From a virus (Duplodnaviria > Caudoviricetes), in the IMG/VR virus record IMGVR_UViG_3300011226_000001, positions 160,001-224,000 of that record: a DNA stretch of 64,000 bases; one strand, given 5' to 3'. The notes beneath the pieces were generated by a model. That model made no database searches. It saw only the letters and a list, made by a program, of their open reading frames with translations, and was not told where the DNA came from. The translations under genes and the position numbers were made by a program. Positions 1,925-15,176 of the stretch are shown in pieces. Within the stretch, counting starts at the first letter, position 1. Every line of letters starts with the position of its first letter.

Positions 1925-2703
1925 GTCGTTTGAAAAAATATGGCTCAGACGTTGGGCTGGACTTACGCAACTTTCCTGATTGCGTCAGCCCTGAGTATAT
2001 CGAAGCGTGGGGAGCATTCATCTCTACGCAGACTGCGGTTGATCTGTTTCACTCACTGCCGCAACCTCTAGGTATGCAACGCGTAGTAGAGGGCTTCCTG
2101 TCTTCTCTCGCAAAGACCAGCACTCAGTTTCTGCTGCGTCCTGTTCCGCCTATCACGAAGCATTCTATCGAGCAGGCTAAGACCTTGCTACAGCTTCAAC
2201 AGCGTGACCTGAAACAGTGGCTGCAACGTATTGAGTTCAGCAGCAAGTTTCGTCTGGCGGAAGTGTACAGTCGAACTGATAGCGACTACAACCGTGTTGC
2301 TAACTGCATCAACACCACGATCGATATCTATCTGGTGTATGTGCCGCAGACGACTCGTGGTGGCATACCCAAGATTGGTGAGCTACTGCATAAGCAGGTT
2401 CCTTACTGGTTTTCGAACAAAGAACCAAAGGCTTTGTTCAAAACTGATAATTTGACGAAGAAACTGGCAAAGTCTCCTCTGCCTGTTGTGCCGGACACTT
2501 ATCCTTCAATTCAACAAGCAATGCTGTCGCCTCGGTCTTGGCATCCTTGGAGTATTGAACAGGGTGTGGACTGTATGCGTGTTAAGGGCAATGCAATCGC
2601 ACTGCACCTGCAATCACGTAGACTGTGTTGTTTCTTGTCCTCGTACAAACGTCATGCTGTGGAGAAGAAGCTCAACTCTTTGGTCAAGAGCATTTTTATT
2701 TAG
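1921..2703 (+). CDS. Hypothetical protein
   Basis: 260-aa ORF; GTG start overlaps the upstream stop; GGAGG RBS. Confidence 0.75.
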   Translation: MSRLKKYGSDVGLDLRNFPDCVSPEYIEAWGAFISTQTAVDLFHSLPQPLGMQRVVEGFLSSLAKTSTQFLLRPVPPITKHSIEQAKTLLQLQQRDLKQWLQRIEFSSKFRLAEVYSRTDSDYNRVANCINTTIDIYLVYVPQTTRGGIPKIGELLHKQVPYWFSNKEPKALFKTDNLTKKLAKSPLPVVPDTYPSIQQAMLSPRSWHPWSIEQGVDCMRVKGNAIALHLQSRRLCCFLSSYKRHAVEKKLNSLVKSIFI

Positions 2704-2713
2704 GAGAAGAACC

Positions 2714-3208
2714 GTGATTGACGTAAACTCGCGGCTTCATATTCTGCTTTCCGGTATTGCGACAAGCGATAAGCGCTACGCAAATGCGGCTGGTGAGATC
2801 ATGAAGTCTGTCTCTGAGGCGCGAGAGCCTATTCAACTGCCTCAATCAGTTCTCGAACTGTTGGGCCGTTCTAACGTGCCGGATATCACTCCGTTTGATC
2901 AGGCTGATCTGCTCTTGATTATGGATGCGCTTGCGAAAGCATTGCTGTCCATTCAGAGCGTCCCTGATACAACGCCGGTTGATGACGGCAAGTACCGCGC
3001 TTATCTGTCCGAGTATCGCCTGCAATATCAGACAATGACAAACGATCAACTCATGTCTGTGTTTACGCGCGATAAGTTCGAAGGGCTTAACCCTCTTCGA
3101 GCCTATGCTCTGGCAGTAGTGCTGTCTGATCTTGCTGCTGATCGTCGCTTGCCTGTTCCAAGCGTGTGGCAATCAGTAATCGACAACTATACCAAACTGG
3201 GTGAATGA
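2714..3208 (+). CDS. Hypothetical protein
   Basis: GTG at 2714 follows an AGGAGA RBS and is in frame with track ORF 2486..3208. Confidence 0.7.
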   Translation: MIDVNSRLHILLSGIATSDKRYANAAGEIMKSVSEAREPIQLPQSVLELLGRSNVPDITPFDQADLLLIMDALAKALLSIQSVPDTTPVDDGKYRAYLSEYRLQYQTMTNDQLMSVFTRDKFEGLNPLRAYALAVVLSDLAADRRLPVPSVWQSVIDNYTKLGE

Positions 3209-6200
3209 TGAATCAGATGATTAGTGTGTCAGCAACAGCGACTCAGCAAATCGCCGATACGTTTAATCAGGCGCTTGCTATTCGTCCGTTGCCGCCCGAG
3301 TTTGATGCGAAAACATCGAAGATGTACGCTACAGGGAAGTCTCGTCGTAACTACGAAGCCCTCGCAGTGTTTACCGCATCAACCGTGGCACGTATCTATG
3401 CGGCTTTCGACCTGATTAACTACATCGTTGTGAACGGTGCAGAGTTCGAAGACATGCTGGAAGTAGCACCTGAAGATTTCCAGAAGCGTGTTAAGAACAA
3501 CATCGACGCGTCTACGCTGAAAATCAATATGCTGCTCAACGGTGATAAACTGAGCCGTGAGATTAAGACTGCTCTGGCCGAGCACCTGTCTTCTTCCTCT
3601 GGTGCTATCATCGAAAACAGTACGCGCTTCCCTGGCGGTAAAGATATCATCATGTCTGGTACTCCGTGCCCGACTAGCCCGCTGGCCTCGAACGGTAACT
3701 TCAACGTTCTGAACAATCAGGGTAGCGACCGTCCTCGCGTTGATAACGATGCGAACTTCGAAAGCGCTAACCTGCGCACGTACAGCGCTGACATTGCTCA
3801 ACAGGCAATTCGTGTTGCGAAGACTATCTACAAAGATATCTTCGGCGTTGACCGTACTAACGGTAATGCGTTCGACACCAAGATGGTACGCATCCCTCTC
3901 GATAAAGACTGGTCTGTGTATAACGCTGCTCTGCGTTCTATTCACCCTTCAATGCACAACATTGATATCGACCTGTTCCGCAATCTGGAGAAGCCTGTAG
4001 TCGATGGTCTGGGTGACTTCATGACTATCGGTATTCGTTCAATCCCCGGCAAGGCCATGATTGATCGTAAGATTCAGGCGATGAAGATCAGCCCTGACAC
4101 TCCTGTTGATTTTAACGAAGTGGCACTCGCTACCGATGTTCGCGTTGAAGGTGGCCTGATCGTTAACTTCGAGAAAGAGATGGTTGAGTACATCTCTCAG
4201 GGTGCTGACACGCAGACCATGTGTCTGTATCGTTGGTTCCAGGGTTGGGCGAGCTACTACTTCCGTGTTGCTGGTTCTACTCGTACTGGTATCACTCGTG
4301 CTGCACGTATCCCGCGCTATGTAACGTCTGCTACTTCTCTGCCTGAATTGAAGAAGCTGCGTGAAAAGTTCGGTTACGCCGTGAACGATGTGGTCGCAGA
4401 CGAGAATGGTATGACCATCATGCCGAACGGCACCATGGCTGTGCTGCCGCGTCGTGAAGACATTGACCTTGAAATGGTTAAGACCTACGAAACCTCCTTG
4501 AACGGTGTGCTTGAAGATCTGTTCGAGAAAGGCATTCCGCTGTCCACCGAACACGACACGCTGCGTACCAACATGTTCGCTATCCAGAATAAGAATCTGG
4601 ACTTCGACCGTGACATTCAGGCGAAAGCTAAGTCTCTGTCTCGTTTTAGTGACGTGTGTATCGGTATTGACCCTGACTTCTCACTGATTGTAAACACCTC
4701 GAACGGCGGAGGGCTGGCAGTTAACGAAACGCGTACTGTCGGTATGAAAGCACCGAACTCGCTGGACGTTGCTGATGCTTTAGGCTACGACTTCGCAGAG
4801 CCGGGTGAAGCACCAAACTTCCGTTCTGTGTCGAACGTGATTGGTAACATCTATCACAATCAGGCATCTGGCGGTATGGCGCTGTATCGTCCTTCGTATG
4901 ACACGATGATCGAAGCTGCTAAGGTTGAATCAGGAAGTGGTAAGTTGGTTGAGAGTGTGAGTGAATCCACAATCAAGTTCAACTCTCCCGAAGGTTCTAA
5001 TCTGCCTGAGCTGCTGAACATCATTGCGCAGACGTGTCAGACCTACGAGTTCATGCTCAAGAACAAACAAGTTCCTGACCTGAAAACGCTGGTGGAGAAC
5101 GCGCGTAAAGCAATCGGCATGGACGCAGAGAACGCTTCCCTGTCTGAAAGCCCGATGGACAAAGACCTGTACGAGAATCTGATTGCTAACGACTTCTCTG
5201 TACCAGAGTTGGCTAGCGAGCGTCCTGCAATGACCATGCTTCGCATCATGATTCGTGTGCTGAACGATGCTGCCGGTCTGCGTGGTTCTAACCTAATCGC
5301 CACCAGCCTGAGCGAGATGGGAAGCATTCAGGCTGCAACCGAATCTCTGCCGTCGCACACTCACTACTTCGTGATGGGTGAGAAGTCAAAGCTGTCTGAC
5401 ATGGCACGACTCAACAACTACTTCGGTGGTGCGCTGTATCGTGAAATGGCACAGTCTCTGGTACGCGCTGATCGTAAGAAGCTGTTTAGCTCTCTGATCG
5501 AAAGCGAGCAGGCGCCTGGCTCTGGCCGTCTGCAACAAATCATTCTGCCGTTCGCTACGATGTACAGCGACGTGATTCCTAAGTCCCTTGAGATTTTCGA
5601 ATCGGCTGAGACTGAGATCGAACGCCTGAAACCTGATAGCGGTATCACGATTGACGATATCCGTATTCCGGGTCTGAAAGACGGTGCAGCGTTACTGCCG
5701 CATCAGGTCGAAGCGCATAAAACACTGCGTCGTCGTCCGCGCTTTGCGACAATCTTTATCGCGCCTGGTGGTGGTAAGACGATTATCGGTCTGACTGATA
5801 TCGCAGCGACTATCAAGGAGCTTGACGATTTAGGTGAAGAGAACATTCGTCCTCTGATCATCTGTCCGTCTAACCTCGTAGCGAACTGGTGTGATGACCT
5901 CCACAAAATCGTTAACGGTTGGAACGCAGTGCCTATTACTGCTGACACCGTGAACACGTGGGGTGAAGAACGTATGTACGATGTGATCTCTCAGTCGCCT
6001 CGTAACACAATCTTCATCGTCGGCCTGAGCTATCTGCAAACAGGTACGTTCAACGTTGATATCGGCGGTGTGCGTGTTCGTGTGCGTGGTGCTGTAGAGT
6101 TCGTTAACCGCTTCAAGTTCAGCTACGTGCTGCTTGATGAATCACACAAAGTTAAGAACTTCTCTGGTGGTCAATCTGGTTCTCAGGTTCACTTCAACAC

Positions 6201-10784: not shown

Positions 10785-12653
10785 ATGGTGAAAATCAAGC
10801 ATATAGATTTTGACTTCGATCCACCTGAACAGTTTGCCGACCAGCAGACATACGACGGTGTTCGAATACTAAAAGGCGTAAGTAAAAGCGCTAAAGGCGG
10901 TAAAGCACTACTCGTCCTCGATCACATGCCAACCGAAGACTTGCGTAACGGCAAGATATTCAGTAGCACAGAAGGTGAGTTGTTCCTGAATCAGATGCAG
11001 TATCTCGAAGATACGTTTCCGACCAAGACGACTCTCGACGACTGGAACTTCCTTGTTGTCTCGTACAACATGTTCAAGACGTATGACAAGGGCGAGCAGT
11101 TCAAAGAAGACGCAGACCAAGCGTTTGCGGATCGTATTCGTGATTTGATTGTTGAGTACAAGCCAGACTACGTTCTAACATTTGGTAAGGCGCCATTCAA
11201 AGCGCTTAACGCCGACAAGATTCAGTTCTCGAAAGATCACTACGAGCACTGGTATGGTGTGGAGATTCCGACGAAGCTCAAGCACGATGGTAAGAAGCAC
11301 AGCTTTATCCATCTGCCGAACGTCAGCTATCACACCGTATTGAACCCGATGCACATCGCTGGTTCATCGTATACTCTCGGTTACATGGCACGTTGGATGT
11401 TGCCGTGGTTGAACAAAGGGATGCGCTATAAGATCGACGAAGTTACGTGTGGTAAGAAGCGTAACTGGGACCTCGTGTATGTAACGAAGGTCAAGCAACT
11501 TGAGAAAATCTTGAAGCGTATGAAGCGCGCGAAGAAGGTTGCAGTCGATACCGAAACCGAGAACCTGAATCGTATTAAGAATAAAATCTTGACGGTGCAG
11601 CTATCGGATGACGGTAAGAAAGCGTATGTCATTCCAATCTATCACCGCGACAGTCCGTTCAGCCCGAAAGAGTTGCGTAAGGTACGCGAGTTGTTCAAAG
11701 ATTATTTCGAGGACAACGAGAACAAGTATCAGATCTACACCAACGCGAAGTTCGACCTGAACGTAATGCGCTCTAACTTCGGCATTCGTAGTTATGCGGC
11801 AAACGTTTGGGATATTCAGGCGGGTGAGTTCGCGTTCGATGAAAACGCCAAGTCGTTGTTGAACGTGACAGGCAGTGGTTATTACAACTTGGCGAACCTG
11901 ACAATGCAGTTCGGCTGTCAGGTGTACCATGAAGTGTCGTTCGGTAAAGAGATGCGAGCAACGATTGCAGACGTTGACCTCGATGAATCAGTGCAGGAGT
12001 ATGCTGGCCTCGACGTTATCGTACCGTTCCGCATTGCAGAGAAGCAGATGCTTCGAGCGAACGATATCAAGTATGGTAAGTATGACTCTATGGTGAGTGA
12101 GCAAATCTCTGACCAGATTCATGCGTTCTCGATTCTTGAGACAACAGGTGCTGGCGCTGATATCGACTACCTGTTTAAGCTCAACCTTCCGAACTCTCCG
12201 ATTAACGAGGAGATTCGAAACGTAGAGCGCGAGTTCATGAACAGCCCAGAAGTTAAGGCTGCGAACAAGGTTATTTGCAAAGACGACAATGTTCCTAAGA
12301 TGGGTCTTATGGGCAAAGTCGAAGTGACCAAGTTCGATATGTCGAAAGCAGAGCATAAACAGATTCTGTTCTTTGACGTGATGAAACTCAAGCCACTGAA
12401 AGAGAGCGAGCAATTACGTGAGAACGGTAAGAAGTCGGGCAAACTCGACAAGGACTTCCAGGAGGCGTATAAGGATGTGCCTCTTGTTGCGTTATATACC
12501 AAACTCGGAAAAGCGTACAAGCTCAAGAACGCCTACGTTAACAGCTTGCTCAAGCTCTGGGGAGAATCAGAAGACTTCAAACACGACCGTTCGATTCGAC
12601 CGACGTATGGCTACCTCGGAGTTGTAACTGGACGTACAAGCGCTAGTGATCCT
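10785..12653 (+). CDS. polA: Family A DNA polymerase, exon 1 (UDG-like domain, 3'-5' exonuclease, start of polymerase domain)
   Basis: ExoI VAVDTETE; ExoII NAKFDL; ExoIII YAGLD; ends GVVTGRTSASDP, the first half of the conserved TGRLSSxxPNLQ motif. Confidence 0.9.
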
Positions 12654-13874
12654 AGATTGGGCTTCATGTAGGAAACTGCATGTCGAAAGCTACCTAAACG
12701 GGGAAGAGCCTTACGCAGCGAATGTGTAAGGAGAACCTACCGTGCTAAATGTCGGAAACGACTAAAAGCCTAACGACTATCCCGCGAGGGAGTAGAGTGA
12801 CAAGCAAATGGTCACGCGAAATGGTAGCGTCCTAAGTTCTCATTTGAGTCTGATATGCAAGCGCGTCAGACGAGAGAATAAGTCTATTCAGAATATTTTC
12901 AGAAATACTTCATTTGGGACTTGTTGACGATAATTAAAATGCGTCACTGACAGCAAGTTCCTTTGAGGCGTATATGAAAAAAGTAAAAACGACCGTGAAG
13001 AAGGGCCGTGCTATTGCACTCGTTGCAGAGCAACATCTTTTGCCTAAATATCTGAAACACTATATTGAGGCTTGGGCGGCGAAATTTCTCCATGATCATC
13101 CAAACGTAAGCACTGCTTATTCGCTAACTGACTTCAAGTGTTGGAAGTCCTATAGAGAAAACATCTTTGTCCATAAGACGGGTGTGTTCTTAATCGTCAA
13201 CGACGAAGGCGAAGTGCGCATGACTGTTGGACGCAAACATCCAAAAGGCTATTTGTCTTTATGGCTGCGTGGTCCTTTGGCGCATAGAGTAGTAGCAACT
13301 GTCTGGAAGAAAAACAAACATCCTGATACAAGACCAATTGTAAACCATCTTGACGGAATCAAGACAAATAACTGTATTGATAACCTTGAGTGGTGCAGCA
13401 ACTCGCGTAACATTCTTCATGCCAGAGAGATGGGTTTAAATGTTTATAACAAACCTACATCTGGTCTAAAGATTGGTGGCCAAAAGAAAGGGACTTCAAA
13501 ATACTTTGGAACCTTTTACGATAAAGCCAAATGTATGTGGGTTGCTCAAGTCAGACACAACAATATTGTGCATGGCCGCCGTCGTTTTCGAAAAGAAGAT
13601 GATGCAGCACTTCACTATAACAATGTGTGTGATATTCTTGGTATAACTGAAAAGCCGCGTAATGACTTTCCGAAGCAGAAGATTCGTCGAGTCAGAATAG
13701 GTAAAGCTGTTATACGAATGATTGGTAAAGATGAACATTTGTTTTTCGTTTCTGAATAGCGGACTTGATATAGTCTCTTCCACATCGGTAAACGGTGTGG
13801 TGGTGTGTAAGACGAGGGATGTTGGTACTCGCATCATCAGAACGTGTGTTGCGAACACGTTTTAAGACCACAAA
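12654..13874 (+). ncRNA. Self-splicing group I intron (subgroup IA2) in the DNA polymerase gene
   Basis: IGS AGATTGGG pairs with exon CCT (U.G) and 3' exon AATCT; P2 CATGTAG/CTGCATG; P3 GCTACC 12689/GGTAGC 12823; P7 GACTA 12775/TAGTC 13771; P7.1 and P7.2 hairpins; P8 GTCC/GGAC; P9 CCACATCG/CGGTGTGG. Removal restores SDP-NLQQVP. Confidence 0.9.
12974..13759 (+). CDS. Intron-encoded HNH homing endonuclease with C-terminal AP2-like DNA-binding domain
   Basis: AHRVVATVW...VNHLDGIKTNNCIDNLEWCSNSRNILH (HNH_3 type); SKYFGTFYDK..CMWVAQV...EDDAALHYN (AP2-like); lies in the P8 loop; more AT-rich than flanks. Confidence 0.85.
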   Translation: MKKVKTTVKKGRAIALVAEQHLLPKYLKHYIEAWAAKFLHDHPNVSTAYSLTDFKCWKSYRENIFVHKTGVFLIVNDEGEVRMTVGRKHPKGYLSLWLRGPLAHRVVATVWKKNKHPDTRPIVNHLDGIKTNNCIDNLEWCSNSRNILHAREMGLNVYNKPTSGLKIGGQKKGTSKYFGTFYDKAKCMWVAQVRHNNIVHGRRRFRKEDDAALHYNNVCDILGITEKPRNDFPKQKIRRVRIGKAVIRMIGKDEHLFFVSE

Positions 13875-15176
13875 AATCTCCAGCAGGTGCCCTCACGTAG
13901 TGAGATGGGTAAACTGATCAAACGTATTCTGATTGCGCGTAAGAATCGCCTGCTTATCAAGGTCGACTACTCAGCGCACGAAGTTCGTGGTTGGTCAATC
14001 ATCTCCGGTGACCAGGGTGTTGCAGACGTATTCGAACAGGGTCGTGCGTTGCGTCATCGCTATCGTACTGTACCAGACCCGTGGATCTGGCATCGCGTCG
14101 AAGCAGAAGGTGACGTTCACAAAATCAACGCCGCATACTTCTTCGGCATTCCAAACGTAATGGATGTAACCAAGTCCGTGCGTAACGCGGTTAAGACAGT
14201 TATCTTCGGTTTGATTTATCAGCAGGGCGATAAAGGTCTTGCGAAGTCTACAGGCCGTGAAGTGTCTGAGATTGCAGAAATCAAAGCCAAGTTCCTTAAA
14301 CGATTCCCTGTTGGCTTAAAATGGTTCGACAAGATTAAGAAGTTTGCACATGAGAACTTCTTTGTTGAATCGCCTGTTGGTCGTCGTCGTCATCTTTGGG
14401 GCTTGATGCTGCCTGAGTCGCACAAAGAAGCGAACATGGTACATGCTGCGTGTGATCGTCGTGCAGTAAACAGTCCAGTACAGGGCTTCGGTTCTGACTT
14501 GATGATGTCCGCGATTCGTATTCTGGATCGCATGAAGTACGATTACTGGAAAGCGAACGGCGAGTACCCTGACTTTGATATGAACGTATCGGTACACGAC
14601 TCCTTAACCGTTGACTGTGATTACAAGTGGATCTTCCTTGCACTTGATATGATCGAACGCGCTATGACAAGCGCTGTGGTTGAGAAAGTACAGAAGCGTC
14701 ATCCGGGGTTTGAGTTCACGTCCGTGCCTGAGATCGACTTTGAAATTGGTGCGTCTGAAAAAGACGTTGGCGGTTGGGACTTCTCTTATGTTGGTCTGCG
14801 TAAACTTATCCAGAAGGGTCTGGAGATTAAACGCGACGAGCTTAACGAACCTGACCTCGACGTTGAGAAGACAACTGACTCCATCATGGAAGATCAGTAT
14901 CACCTCATGTCTGATTGGATGAAGAAACAACTGTGGGCGAATGGCATTAAGATTCGCAGCATGGATAAAGTTAATCCTCTCACCAACAAAGACAAGAAGA
15001 ACGTCGAAGAATGGCTCAAAGAACTTCCGAAGAACGTTAAGAAGTTCGAAGCATACGAAGCAGAGGAAGCGAAGAAGAAAGCCGCTGCCGCTGCTGGTGG
15101 TGCAAAAGGCCAGAAGAAAATCAAAATCAGCAAGTCCATGCTTAAAATGGCACTTAAGGGGATTGCGAAGAAATGA
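13875..15176 (+). CDS. polA: Family A DNA polymerase, exon 2 (spliced product about 1056 aa)
   Basis: Begins NLQQVPSR; motif A KVDYSAHEVR; motif B RNAVKTVIFGLIY; motif C SVHDSL. Confidence 0.9.
   Translation, partial: NLQQVPSRSEMGKLIKRILIARKNRLLIKVDYSAHEVRGWSIISGDQGVADVFEQGRALRHRYRTVPDPWIWHRVEAEGDVHKINAAYFFGIPNVMDVTKSVRNAVKTVIFGLIYQQGDKGLAKSTGREVSEIAEIKAKFLKRFPVGLKWFDKIKKFAHENFFVESPVGRRRHLWGLMLPESHKEANMVHAACDRRAVNSPVQGFGSDLMMSAIRILDRMKYDYWKANGEYPDFDMNVSVHDSLTVDCDYKWIFLALDMIERAMTSAVVEKVQKRHPGFEFTSVPEIDFEIGASEKDVGGWDFSYVGLRKLIQKGLEIKRDELNEPDLDVEKTTDSIMEDQYHLMSDWMKKQLWANGIKIRSMDKVNPLTNKDKKNVEEWLKELPKNVKKFEAYEAEEAKKKAAAAAGGAKGQKKIKISKSMLKMALKGIAKK

Follow-up and report, generated by a model that had tools for sequence, protein, structure and literature searches.

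Group I introns nearly all end in a guanosine, and this terminal G (omega-G) is treated as a near-universal need of the second splicing step; in the Tetrahymena and td introns, an A in the G-specific pocket much slows ligation and can divert it to nearby Gs. The Coxiella burnetii intron Cbu.L1917 reportedly ends in A and still self-splices; it is said to be a ribosomal RNA (rRNA) intron of a bacterium, to belong to another subgroup and not to lie in a protein-coding phage gene. We know of no report of a published phage intron without a terminal G. In the cited literature, a 23S rRNA intron of C. burnetii 'lacks the canonical omegaG', in the words of a title listed in PMC11270868. The hexacoral mitochondrial ND5-717 group I intron also has no terminal G, and its exons are perfectly ligated in vivo, with >70% of the precursors unspliced (PMC6545197). 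Phage introns of the IA2 class with HNH endonucleases are known from the family A DNA polymerase genes (PolA) of SPO1 (I-HmuI), SP82, Bastille, Pf-WMP3 (I-PfoP3I), phiL7 and W31, and at least three PolA insertion sites have been described in phages (PMC3428280).

Here we analyzed 64,000 nucleotides (nt) of viral DNA, hereafter the window (positions 160,001 to 224,000 of IMG/VR record IMGVR_UViG_3300011226_000001). It is part of a 268-kb Alexandravirus-like jumbo phage genome, the relatives of which infect Erwinia amylovora and Dickeya. The sole DNA polymerase detected in this phage, a family A enzyme, is interrupted between the Pro and Asn codons of ...SDP|NLQQVP by a 1221-nt group I intron (12654-13874) of the phage td-like IA type, as marked by P7.1/P7.2. 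At the sequence level, comparison with related phages confirmed the observation of a preliminary description of this locus: the element is a mobile group I intron of subgroup IA that has A as its last base, a rare exception.

The interrupted polymerase gene

The polymerase gene is in two parts separated by 1221 nt, and the three segments are as follows.

10785-12653, + strand, PolA exon 1: 3'-5' exonuclease domain and the beginning of the polymerase domain, with ...TGRTSASDP at its end
12654-13874, + strand, group I intron: homologous to a 323-nt intron without an open reading frame (ORF) at the same site (L008, see below), with complementary, covarying helices
13875-15176, + strand, PolA exon 2: starting NLQQVPSRSEMGK..., matching Pfam DNA_pol_A from position 127 and PHROG 17 from position 981

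Exon 1 matches Pfam DNA_pol_A_exo1, DNA_pol_A to profile position 126 and PHROG 17 positions 470-980, and both polymerase profiles continue directly over the split (126|127 in Pfam PF00476 DNA_pol_A, 980|981 in PHROG 17). The 3' end of exon 1 reads ...GAT CCT (12653) and the 5' end of exon 2 AAT CTC CAG (13875; protein NLQQVPSRSE), and the insert between them begins with AGATTGGG and ends with ...GACCACAAA. It is absent in 48 of the 49 related phage records and present in one. An uninterrupted 3171-nt polymerase coding sequence, with which exon 1 is colinear, is found in both pEa_SNUABM_30 and Dickeya phage AD1; across the site, the intronless relatives read TSASDPNLQQVPSRSE (...TSASDPNLQQVPSR...) with no break, and 12654-13874 is precisely the DNA in excess of these 3171-nt genes.

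When all in-frame junctions were enumerated, only 12652/13873, 12653/13874 and 12654/13875 restored the SDPNLQQVP of the relatives. Because positions 13872-13876 are AAAAA, the terminal intron base is A under all three. The first 8 nt of the intron (12654-61) are fully complementary, with one U.G pair, to the ligated junction CCU|AAUCU; this arrangement is kept in two related introns (L008 and L015, see below) and is thus not due to chance. The preliminary description had joined CCT(12653) to AAT(13875) to restore the PolA motif and had let the pairing of these 8 nt, as P1 with its U.G pair and a 5-bp P10, fix both splice sites. Its coordinates were right, and the junction enumeration, the intronless relatives and the continuity of the profiles all agree with them.

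In the GenBank record of phage pEa_SNUABM_40 (MZ443780, our L001), which holds the same intron, the intron is unannotated. The polymerase halves and the endonuclease appear there as three unrelated hypothetical proteins (471-2360, 2662-3447 and 3593-4864), the second half of the polymerase having been begun at an internal ATG. As a practical point, the present annotations of these phages break the polymerase into unrelated 'hypothetical proteins'.

The terminal base and the fold of the intron

The terminal A13874 is present in three independent assemblies: the window, pEa_SNUABM_40, which is a cultured, plaque-isolated phage, and IMG/VR UViG_3300031370 (L007), an independent metagenomic genome. 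The three share the 3' end ...GACCACAAA|AAUCUCC, and the tail is invariant. A search of IMG/VR and the JGI metagenomes for further copies of the window-type 3' domain returned only two contigs that were already known.

A pattern search for the conserved 5' block gave five homologues inserted at the same point of PolA (126|127 in the profile for CRC2 and L008), the junctions of which were fixed independently. They are a 323-nt intron without an ORF in a 214-kb phage (L008, IMGVR_UViG_3300024308_000188, 12490-12812, - strand), an 857-nt intron with an ORF in P6 in a 319-kb phage (L015, IMGVR_UViG_3300033997_000243), and the introns of Pseudomonas phage CRC2 and of two N4-like viral contigs (L009 and L012). 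In the core alignment, the column before the 3' splice site holds G in all five of these introns and A in the window. L008 and L015 end ...AAUAAAG (UUAAGAAAGAAUAAAG), whereas the window ends ...UUAAGACCACAAA.

L008 and L015 are otherwise much like the window intron: they have in common the insertion point 126|127, the first 55 nt including the guide AGAUUGGG, the AAUCUCC exon start with the P10 partner AAUCU, P7 and its flanks, P9.1a and the P9.2 loop, with ~80% identity over the 5' ribozyme. The differences lie in the 3' end (...AAUAAAG against ...ACCACAAA) and in the endonuclease gene, which is in P6 or missing in these two and in P8 in the window. Since guide, P10, and P7 with its flanks are shared, A13874 corresponds to the usual terminal G. 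No compensating change was found around P7 relative to the G-ending relatives.

Related td-like introns were also seen in non-polymerase genes of N4-like phages (L005, Escherichia phage U1G, 2495-3365; L006, at about 595-1470 and about 1900-2650; L010; L018; L019). They share the GGGCUUC-P2-GUCGAAA block, some of them also the GUUGCGA P9.2 loop, and all appear G-ending, as far as their junctions could be placed.

The elements of the ribozyme are listed below; MFE denotes the minimum free energy fold.

12651-12661, + strand, P1 with the internal guide: CCU 12651-53 / GGG 12659-61, with U12653.G12659 at the 5' splice site
12654-58, + strand, P10 guide AGAUU, from sequence
12665-12682, + strand, P2 hairpin CAUGUAG-GAAA-CUGCAUG: MFE fold; fully compensatory forms in CRC2, L009 and L012
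12689-12828, + strand, P3: GCUACC 12689-94 / GGUAGC 12823-28; GC to AU in N4-like relatives
12698-701 / 12740-43, + strand, P4: MFE fold
12709-14 / 12726-31, + strand, P5a: MFE fold
12744-46 / 12767-69, + strand, P6: MFE fold
12751-54 / 12759-62, + strand, P6a: MFE fold; covaries in L008
12775-79, + strand, P7 5' strand GACUA, complementary to 13771-75
12780-91, + strand, P7.1 UCCC-GCGA-GGGA: MFE fold; covaries in L008
12797-12815, + strand, P7.2 GUGAC...GUCAC: MFE fold; covaries in L008
12829-13764, + strand, P8: GUCC 12829-32 / GGAC 13761-64, with a 0.9-kb insertion
12837-12878, + strand, hairpin inside the P8 insertion
12884-91 / 13752-59, + strand, inner helix of the P8 insertion: CUAUUCAG / CUGAAUAG
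13771-13775, + strand, P7 3' strand UAGUC, which follows J8/7 GAUA and pairs with 12775-79 in the G-binding helix
From 13776, + strand, J7/9 UCUU, in which UU 13778-79 is the P9.0 partner
13780-13800, + strand, P9: complementarity and covariation with L008, CRC2, L009 and L012
13801-05 / 13835-39, + strand, P9.1: complementarity and covariation with the same four
13813-16 / 13828-31, + strand, P9.1a: complementarity and covariation with the same four
13840-47 / 13855-62, + strand, P9.2 with loop GUUGCGA: complementarity and covariation; A-U at 13841-42 is G.U in pEa_SNUABM_40 and UViG_3300031370
13863-13874, + strand, 3' tail UAAGACCACAAA: AA 13872-73 can form P9.0, and A13874 is the last base (omega-A)
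13875-13879, + strand, P10 partner AAUCU: 5 bp with AGAUU 12654-58, contiguous with P1; likewise in L008 and L015

The MFE fold of 12648-12832 yielded P2, P3, P4, P5a, P6, P6a, P7.1 and P7.2 (z = -3.4). When the window was compared with L008, CRC2, L009 and L012, every listed helix was complementary in each sequence, and compensatory differences were found in P2, P3, P5a, P6a, P7.1, P7.2, P8, P9, P9.0, P9.1 and P9.2. P9.0, for example, is UU/AA in L009 and UC/GA in L012, and the counterpart of P8 in L008 is GGCC/GGCC around a 22-nt loop. The same CCU/GGG layout stands before a conserved GGGCUUC in all five homologues. The P7 3' strand and J8/7 are identical in all relatives, and in L006, L005, L009 and L010 they are aligned to the Rfam RF00028 consensus GAUAUAGUC.

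These comparisons bear out several statements of the preliminary description. The element is a genuine group I intron, its core helices covarying with those of relatives; the P7 pair GACTA 12775/TAGTC 13771, described as canonical, is present, complementary and identical to the pocket of the G-ending relatives; and the last intron base is indeed A where the homologues at the same site carry G. The G nearest to 13874 on its upstream side is G13866, as had been noted, and its use from U12653 would frameshift the polymerase message. The closure of a domain around this G by TGGT 13801/ACCA 13867 stood only in part. The two strands are complementary and pair in the MFE fold of the 3' domain (GUGGU 13800-04 / ACCAC 13867-71, so that just AAA separates the helix from the 3' splice site), but L008 and L015 have no equivalent, and the helix competes with the covarying P9.1 (UGGUG 13801-05 / CAUCA 13835-39, which is CGAUG/CAUCG in L008). 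Hence, we rejected it as a conserved element; it is specific to the A-ending lineage, excludes P9.1 and may be a lineage-specific alternative conformer. In addition, the CCACA of the tail repeats the P9 5' strand (13780-84), so that other pairings are possible.

Splicing after the terminal A and its alternatives

In the 268-kb genome, neither a further family A polymerase nor one of the family B or Pol III alpha type was detected. Without splicing, the frame of exon 1 ends at UAG 12669-12671, 16 nt into the intron and in the P2 5' strand; translation of the unspliced RNA would stop after SDPRLGFM and yield a fragment with the exonuclease alone. After the in-frame UAA 13863-65, no start codon occurs before GUG 13887, which has no Shine-Dalgarno sequence and would lose NLQQ, and the sequence around it is the same in intronless relatives. 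As the only polymerase detected has a downstream half with no translation start of its own, splicing is needed to make it, in agreement with the preliminary description.

The intron is probably spliced at A13874 in vivo. The first step would be ordinary: guanosine triphosphate would dock in the unchanged P7 pocket and attack after U12653, which is in wobble with G12659 in P1. During the following step, the 3' exon would be held by the 5-bp P10 (AGAUU/AAUCU) stacked directly on P1, P9.0 (UU 13778-79 / AA 13872-73) would also set the site, and A13874 would take the place of the G. Ligation after A13874 would then give CCU|AAU and a full-length polymerase (about 120 kDa) with the junction peptide ...SASDPNLQQVPSR. 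Most likely, the terminal A goes back to a G-to-A change in an ancestor that resembled the G-ending sisters, and it would be tolerated because P10 and P9.0 already fix the site, probably with slower or less efficient exon ligation. Given an A in a G-specific pocket and a competitor at G13866, splicing would be expected to be productive but inefficient, as is the case for ND5-717 (PMC6545197).

Several points weigh against this proposal. As P7 and its flanks do not differ from those of the G-ending relatives, the pocket should still prefer G. AA also precedes G13866, so that this G, too, could make P9.0 and be a competing cryptic 3' site. In Tetrahymena terminal-G mutants, an A at this position reportedly impairs the second step severely. 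The CCU|AAU ligation junction is one that we infer; the exon flanks that support P1 and P10 are inherited with the intron and are no proof of function in the A-ending state. The near-identity of the ribozyme across endonuclease haplotypes (see below) could reflect recent recombination rather than long-term selection. Finally, Rfam gave no group I match in 12500-14000, even at E <= 10, nor in the whole window at the gathering threshold, nor in the whole 268-kb genome. RF00028 did match the related introns in L006, L009 and L010, which have the same P7-P7.1-P7.2 block and GAUAUAGUC, with E = 1e-6 to 5e-6 and scores of 36-39 bits, under the gathering cut-off of 50. Because it also misses the ORF-less sister L008, we put the Rfam miss down to a model insensitive to this subgroup, the 0.9-kb P8 insert adding to it.

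In a variant of splicing at A13874, the A would be maintained and not just tolerated as a defect, with slow exon ligation as the limiting step that throttles or times production of the polymerase or makes it depend on a phage or host factor. We consider this rather unlikely. The GUGGU 13800-04 / ACCAC 13867-71 helix would then be a conformer presenting A13874 to the active site, and, in broader terms, the td-like family may do without guanosine recognition in the second step if P10 and P9.0 are strong. A regulatory role of the terminal A is speculation.

There is also only a small chance that a cryptic G is used instead of A13874 and that the phage lives with an altered polymerase. In model introns, terminal-G mutants switch to nearby Gs, and the AA before G13866 could make P9.0 with UU 13778-79. 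The sole in-frame options near the P1-defined 5' site with a U before it and a G at the intron end are U12657-A13867 (after G13866, adding RYHK), U12653-C13884 (after G13883, losing NLQ) and U12653-G13887 (after G13886, losing NLQQ); options further off delete or add far more of the motif. However, SDPNLQQVP shows no indel in any relative, whether it carries the intron or not, and no P10 is possible at 13867, 13884 or 13887, against 5 bp at 13875. U12657 was rejected as a 5' splice site, as it has no U.G pair, leaves a G-G mismatch in P1 and breaks up the covarying P2. In UViG_3300031370, CAA replaces the Gln codon CAG of exon 2, a synonymous change, so this codon looks translated.

That there is no productive splicing, the polymerase being two separately translated fragments or the G-to-A change a transient defect, seems improbable to us. 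Some T4-like phages are known to have genes in pieces, three separate hypothetical proteins are listed for pEa_SNUABM_40 in GenBank, exon 1 soon meets its stop codon in the intron, and in the textbook view the loss of the terminal G is disabling. Yet a split, unspliced polymerase is unlikely here. For the downstream half, no Shine-Dalgarno sequence with a start codon lies before GUG 13887, and starting at GUG 13887 or AUG 13905 would lose NLQQ(VPSRSE); these residues are part of an invariant motif, SDPNLQ, inside which the gene is split, and intronless relatives have the same sequence around these codons. Moreover, the ribozyme is almost invariant against a dS of about 1 for the embedded ORF (dS and dN being synonymous and nonsynonymous divergence), with its changes in loops or compatible with G.U pairs; three diverged phages, including a cultured one, carry the allele; and no second polymerase that could compensate was detected.

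A further scheme, in which splicing uses U12653 and G13866 and the frameshift is put right by ribosomes slipping -1 in the run of A (ACA AAA AUC), would add TTK and is very improbable. Together with the AA before it, G13866 could pass for an ordinary 3' end, and a run of five A follows it, but there is no tandem slippery heptamer, no stimulatory structure and no P10 at 13867. The sisters L008 and L015 have a G within the equivalent run and need no slippage, and residues would be put into the invariant motif (SDPTTKNLQ). That A13874 is a sequencing or assembly error in its homopolymer run of five A can practically be dismissed, as it is identical in three independent assemblies from different samples, a G at 13874 would give AAGAA, and an inserted G would shift the frame only if it lay in the exon.

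Endonuclease gene, spread of the allele and known introns

The P8 loop of the intron holds one gene.

12974-13759, + strand, HNH homing-endonuclease gene, 261 aa, with GAGG 5 nt upstream of its ATG

The product matches PHROG 59 (E = 1e-23) and PHROG 99 (E = 5e-17), both HNH endonuclease, and weakly Pfam HNH_3; a PDB sequence search with it gave no match. All three genomes have the ORF of 261 codons intact. For the window versus pEa_SNUABM_40, dS is 1.07 and dN/dS 0.10, pointing to purifying selection, and between pEa_SNUABM_40 and UViG_3300031370, dS is 0.10, the intron being nearly identical and the exons more diverged (~85% identity on average). Over the 411 nt of the ribozyme (12654-12941 and 13752-13874), the window and pEa_SNUABM_40 differ at five positions, and a sixth change, at 13819, is found only in UViG_3300031370; all six are in loops or turn A-U into G.U in P9.2.

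Intron-bearing alleles have identical exon flanks over ~20 nt upstream and 14 nt downstream and diverge beyond, and at the synonymous sites of the junction the intronless CCG AAC UUG stands against the intron-bearing CCU AAU CUC. This pattern is the signature of homing with short co-conversion tracts. The A-ending allele has therefore entered, or persisted in, several diverged polymerase genes. The joined junction sequence, that is, an intronless allele with intron-type exon flanks, was sought in IMG/VR, and none was found. As the A-ending allele stands on two endonuclease haplotypes and three diverged exon backgrounds, it is viable, has spread and is no dead end; one of its carriers, pEa_SNUABM_40, forms plaques.

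Identity changes sharply at ~12941 and ~13752, from ~99% in the ribozyme arms to 62-90% in the cassette 12942-13751 (dS about 1), which takes in the 32 nt upstream of the endonuclease ATG. These boundaries suggest that the endonuclease cassette has a history of its own, separate from that of the ribozyme, by cassette exchange or recombination. Likewise, at this one polymerase site the HNH gene is in P8 in the window, in P6 in L015, CRC2, L009 and L012, and missing in L008, and these three arrangements show independent endonuclease invasions or losses. The loci compared for this include about 780-1280 of L015 and about 2614-3160 of L004. The ~100 nt of the P8 insert upstream of the endonuclease (12837-12940) are conserved like the core, with one change each at 12842 and 12909. 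With the hairpin 12837-12878 and AT-rich sequence that holds TTGACG and GATAAT-like hexamers, they might be a signal for endonuclease expression or extend the structure.

Among described introns, those of the phage IA2 class in PolA and the T4 td intron share the P7.1/P7.2 architecture with the window intron, and the former also share the HNH endonuclease, the insertion in a conserved polymerase motif and the patchy distribution. For the A-ending state, the preliminary description had named the Coxiella intron as the natural precedent. This holds in that a published case exists, which going by its title is, like the present one, a natural group I intron lacking omegaG (PMC11270868), but the list was incomplete, as ND5-717 also has no terminal G (PMC6545197). 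ND5-717 resembles the window intron in this and in its huge P8 insertion, but it resides in mitochondria, is inherited vertically without being mobile, and is back-spliced in some species (PMC6545197).

A-ending group I introns are thus a rare, already known kind, of which the present intron is one more case. What is special here is the presence of close G-ending sisters, the evidence of spread and a culturable phage: the A-ending form lies in the sole polymerase of a phage grown on Erwinia amylovora (pEa_SNUABM_40). Introns ending in A and in G with the same guide, P10, P7 and flanks, and site make an almost controlled natural comparison, which allows the contribution of the terminal G to be measured where P10 and P9.0 are strong. 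Together with the published cases, this intron adds to growing evidence that group I introns ending in A are not as rare as textbooks have it.

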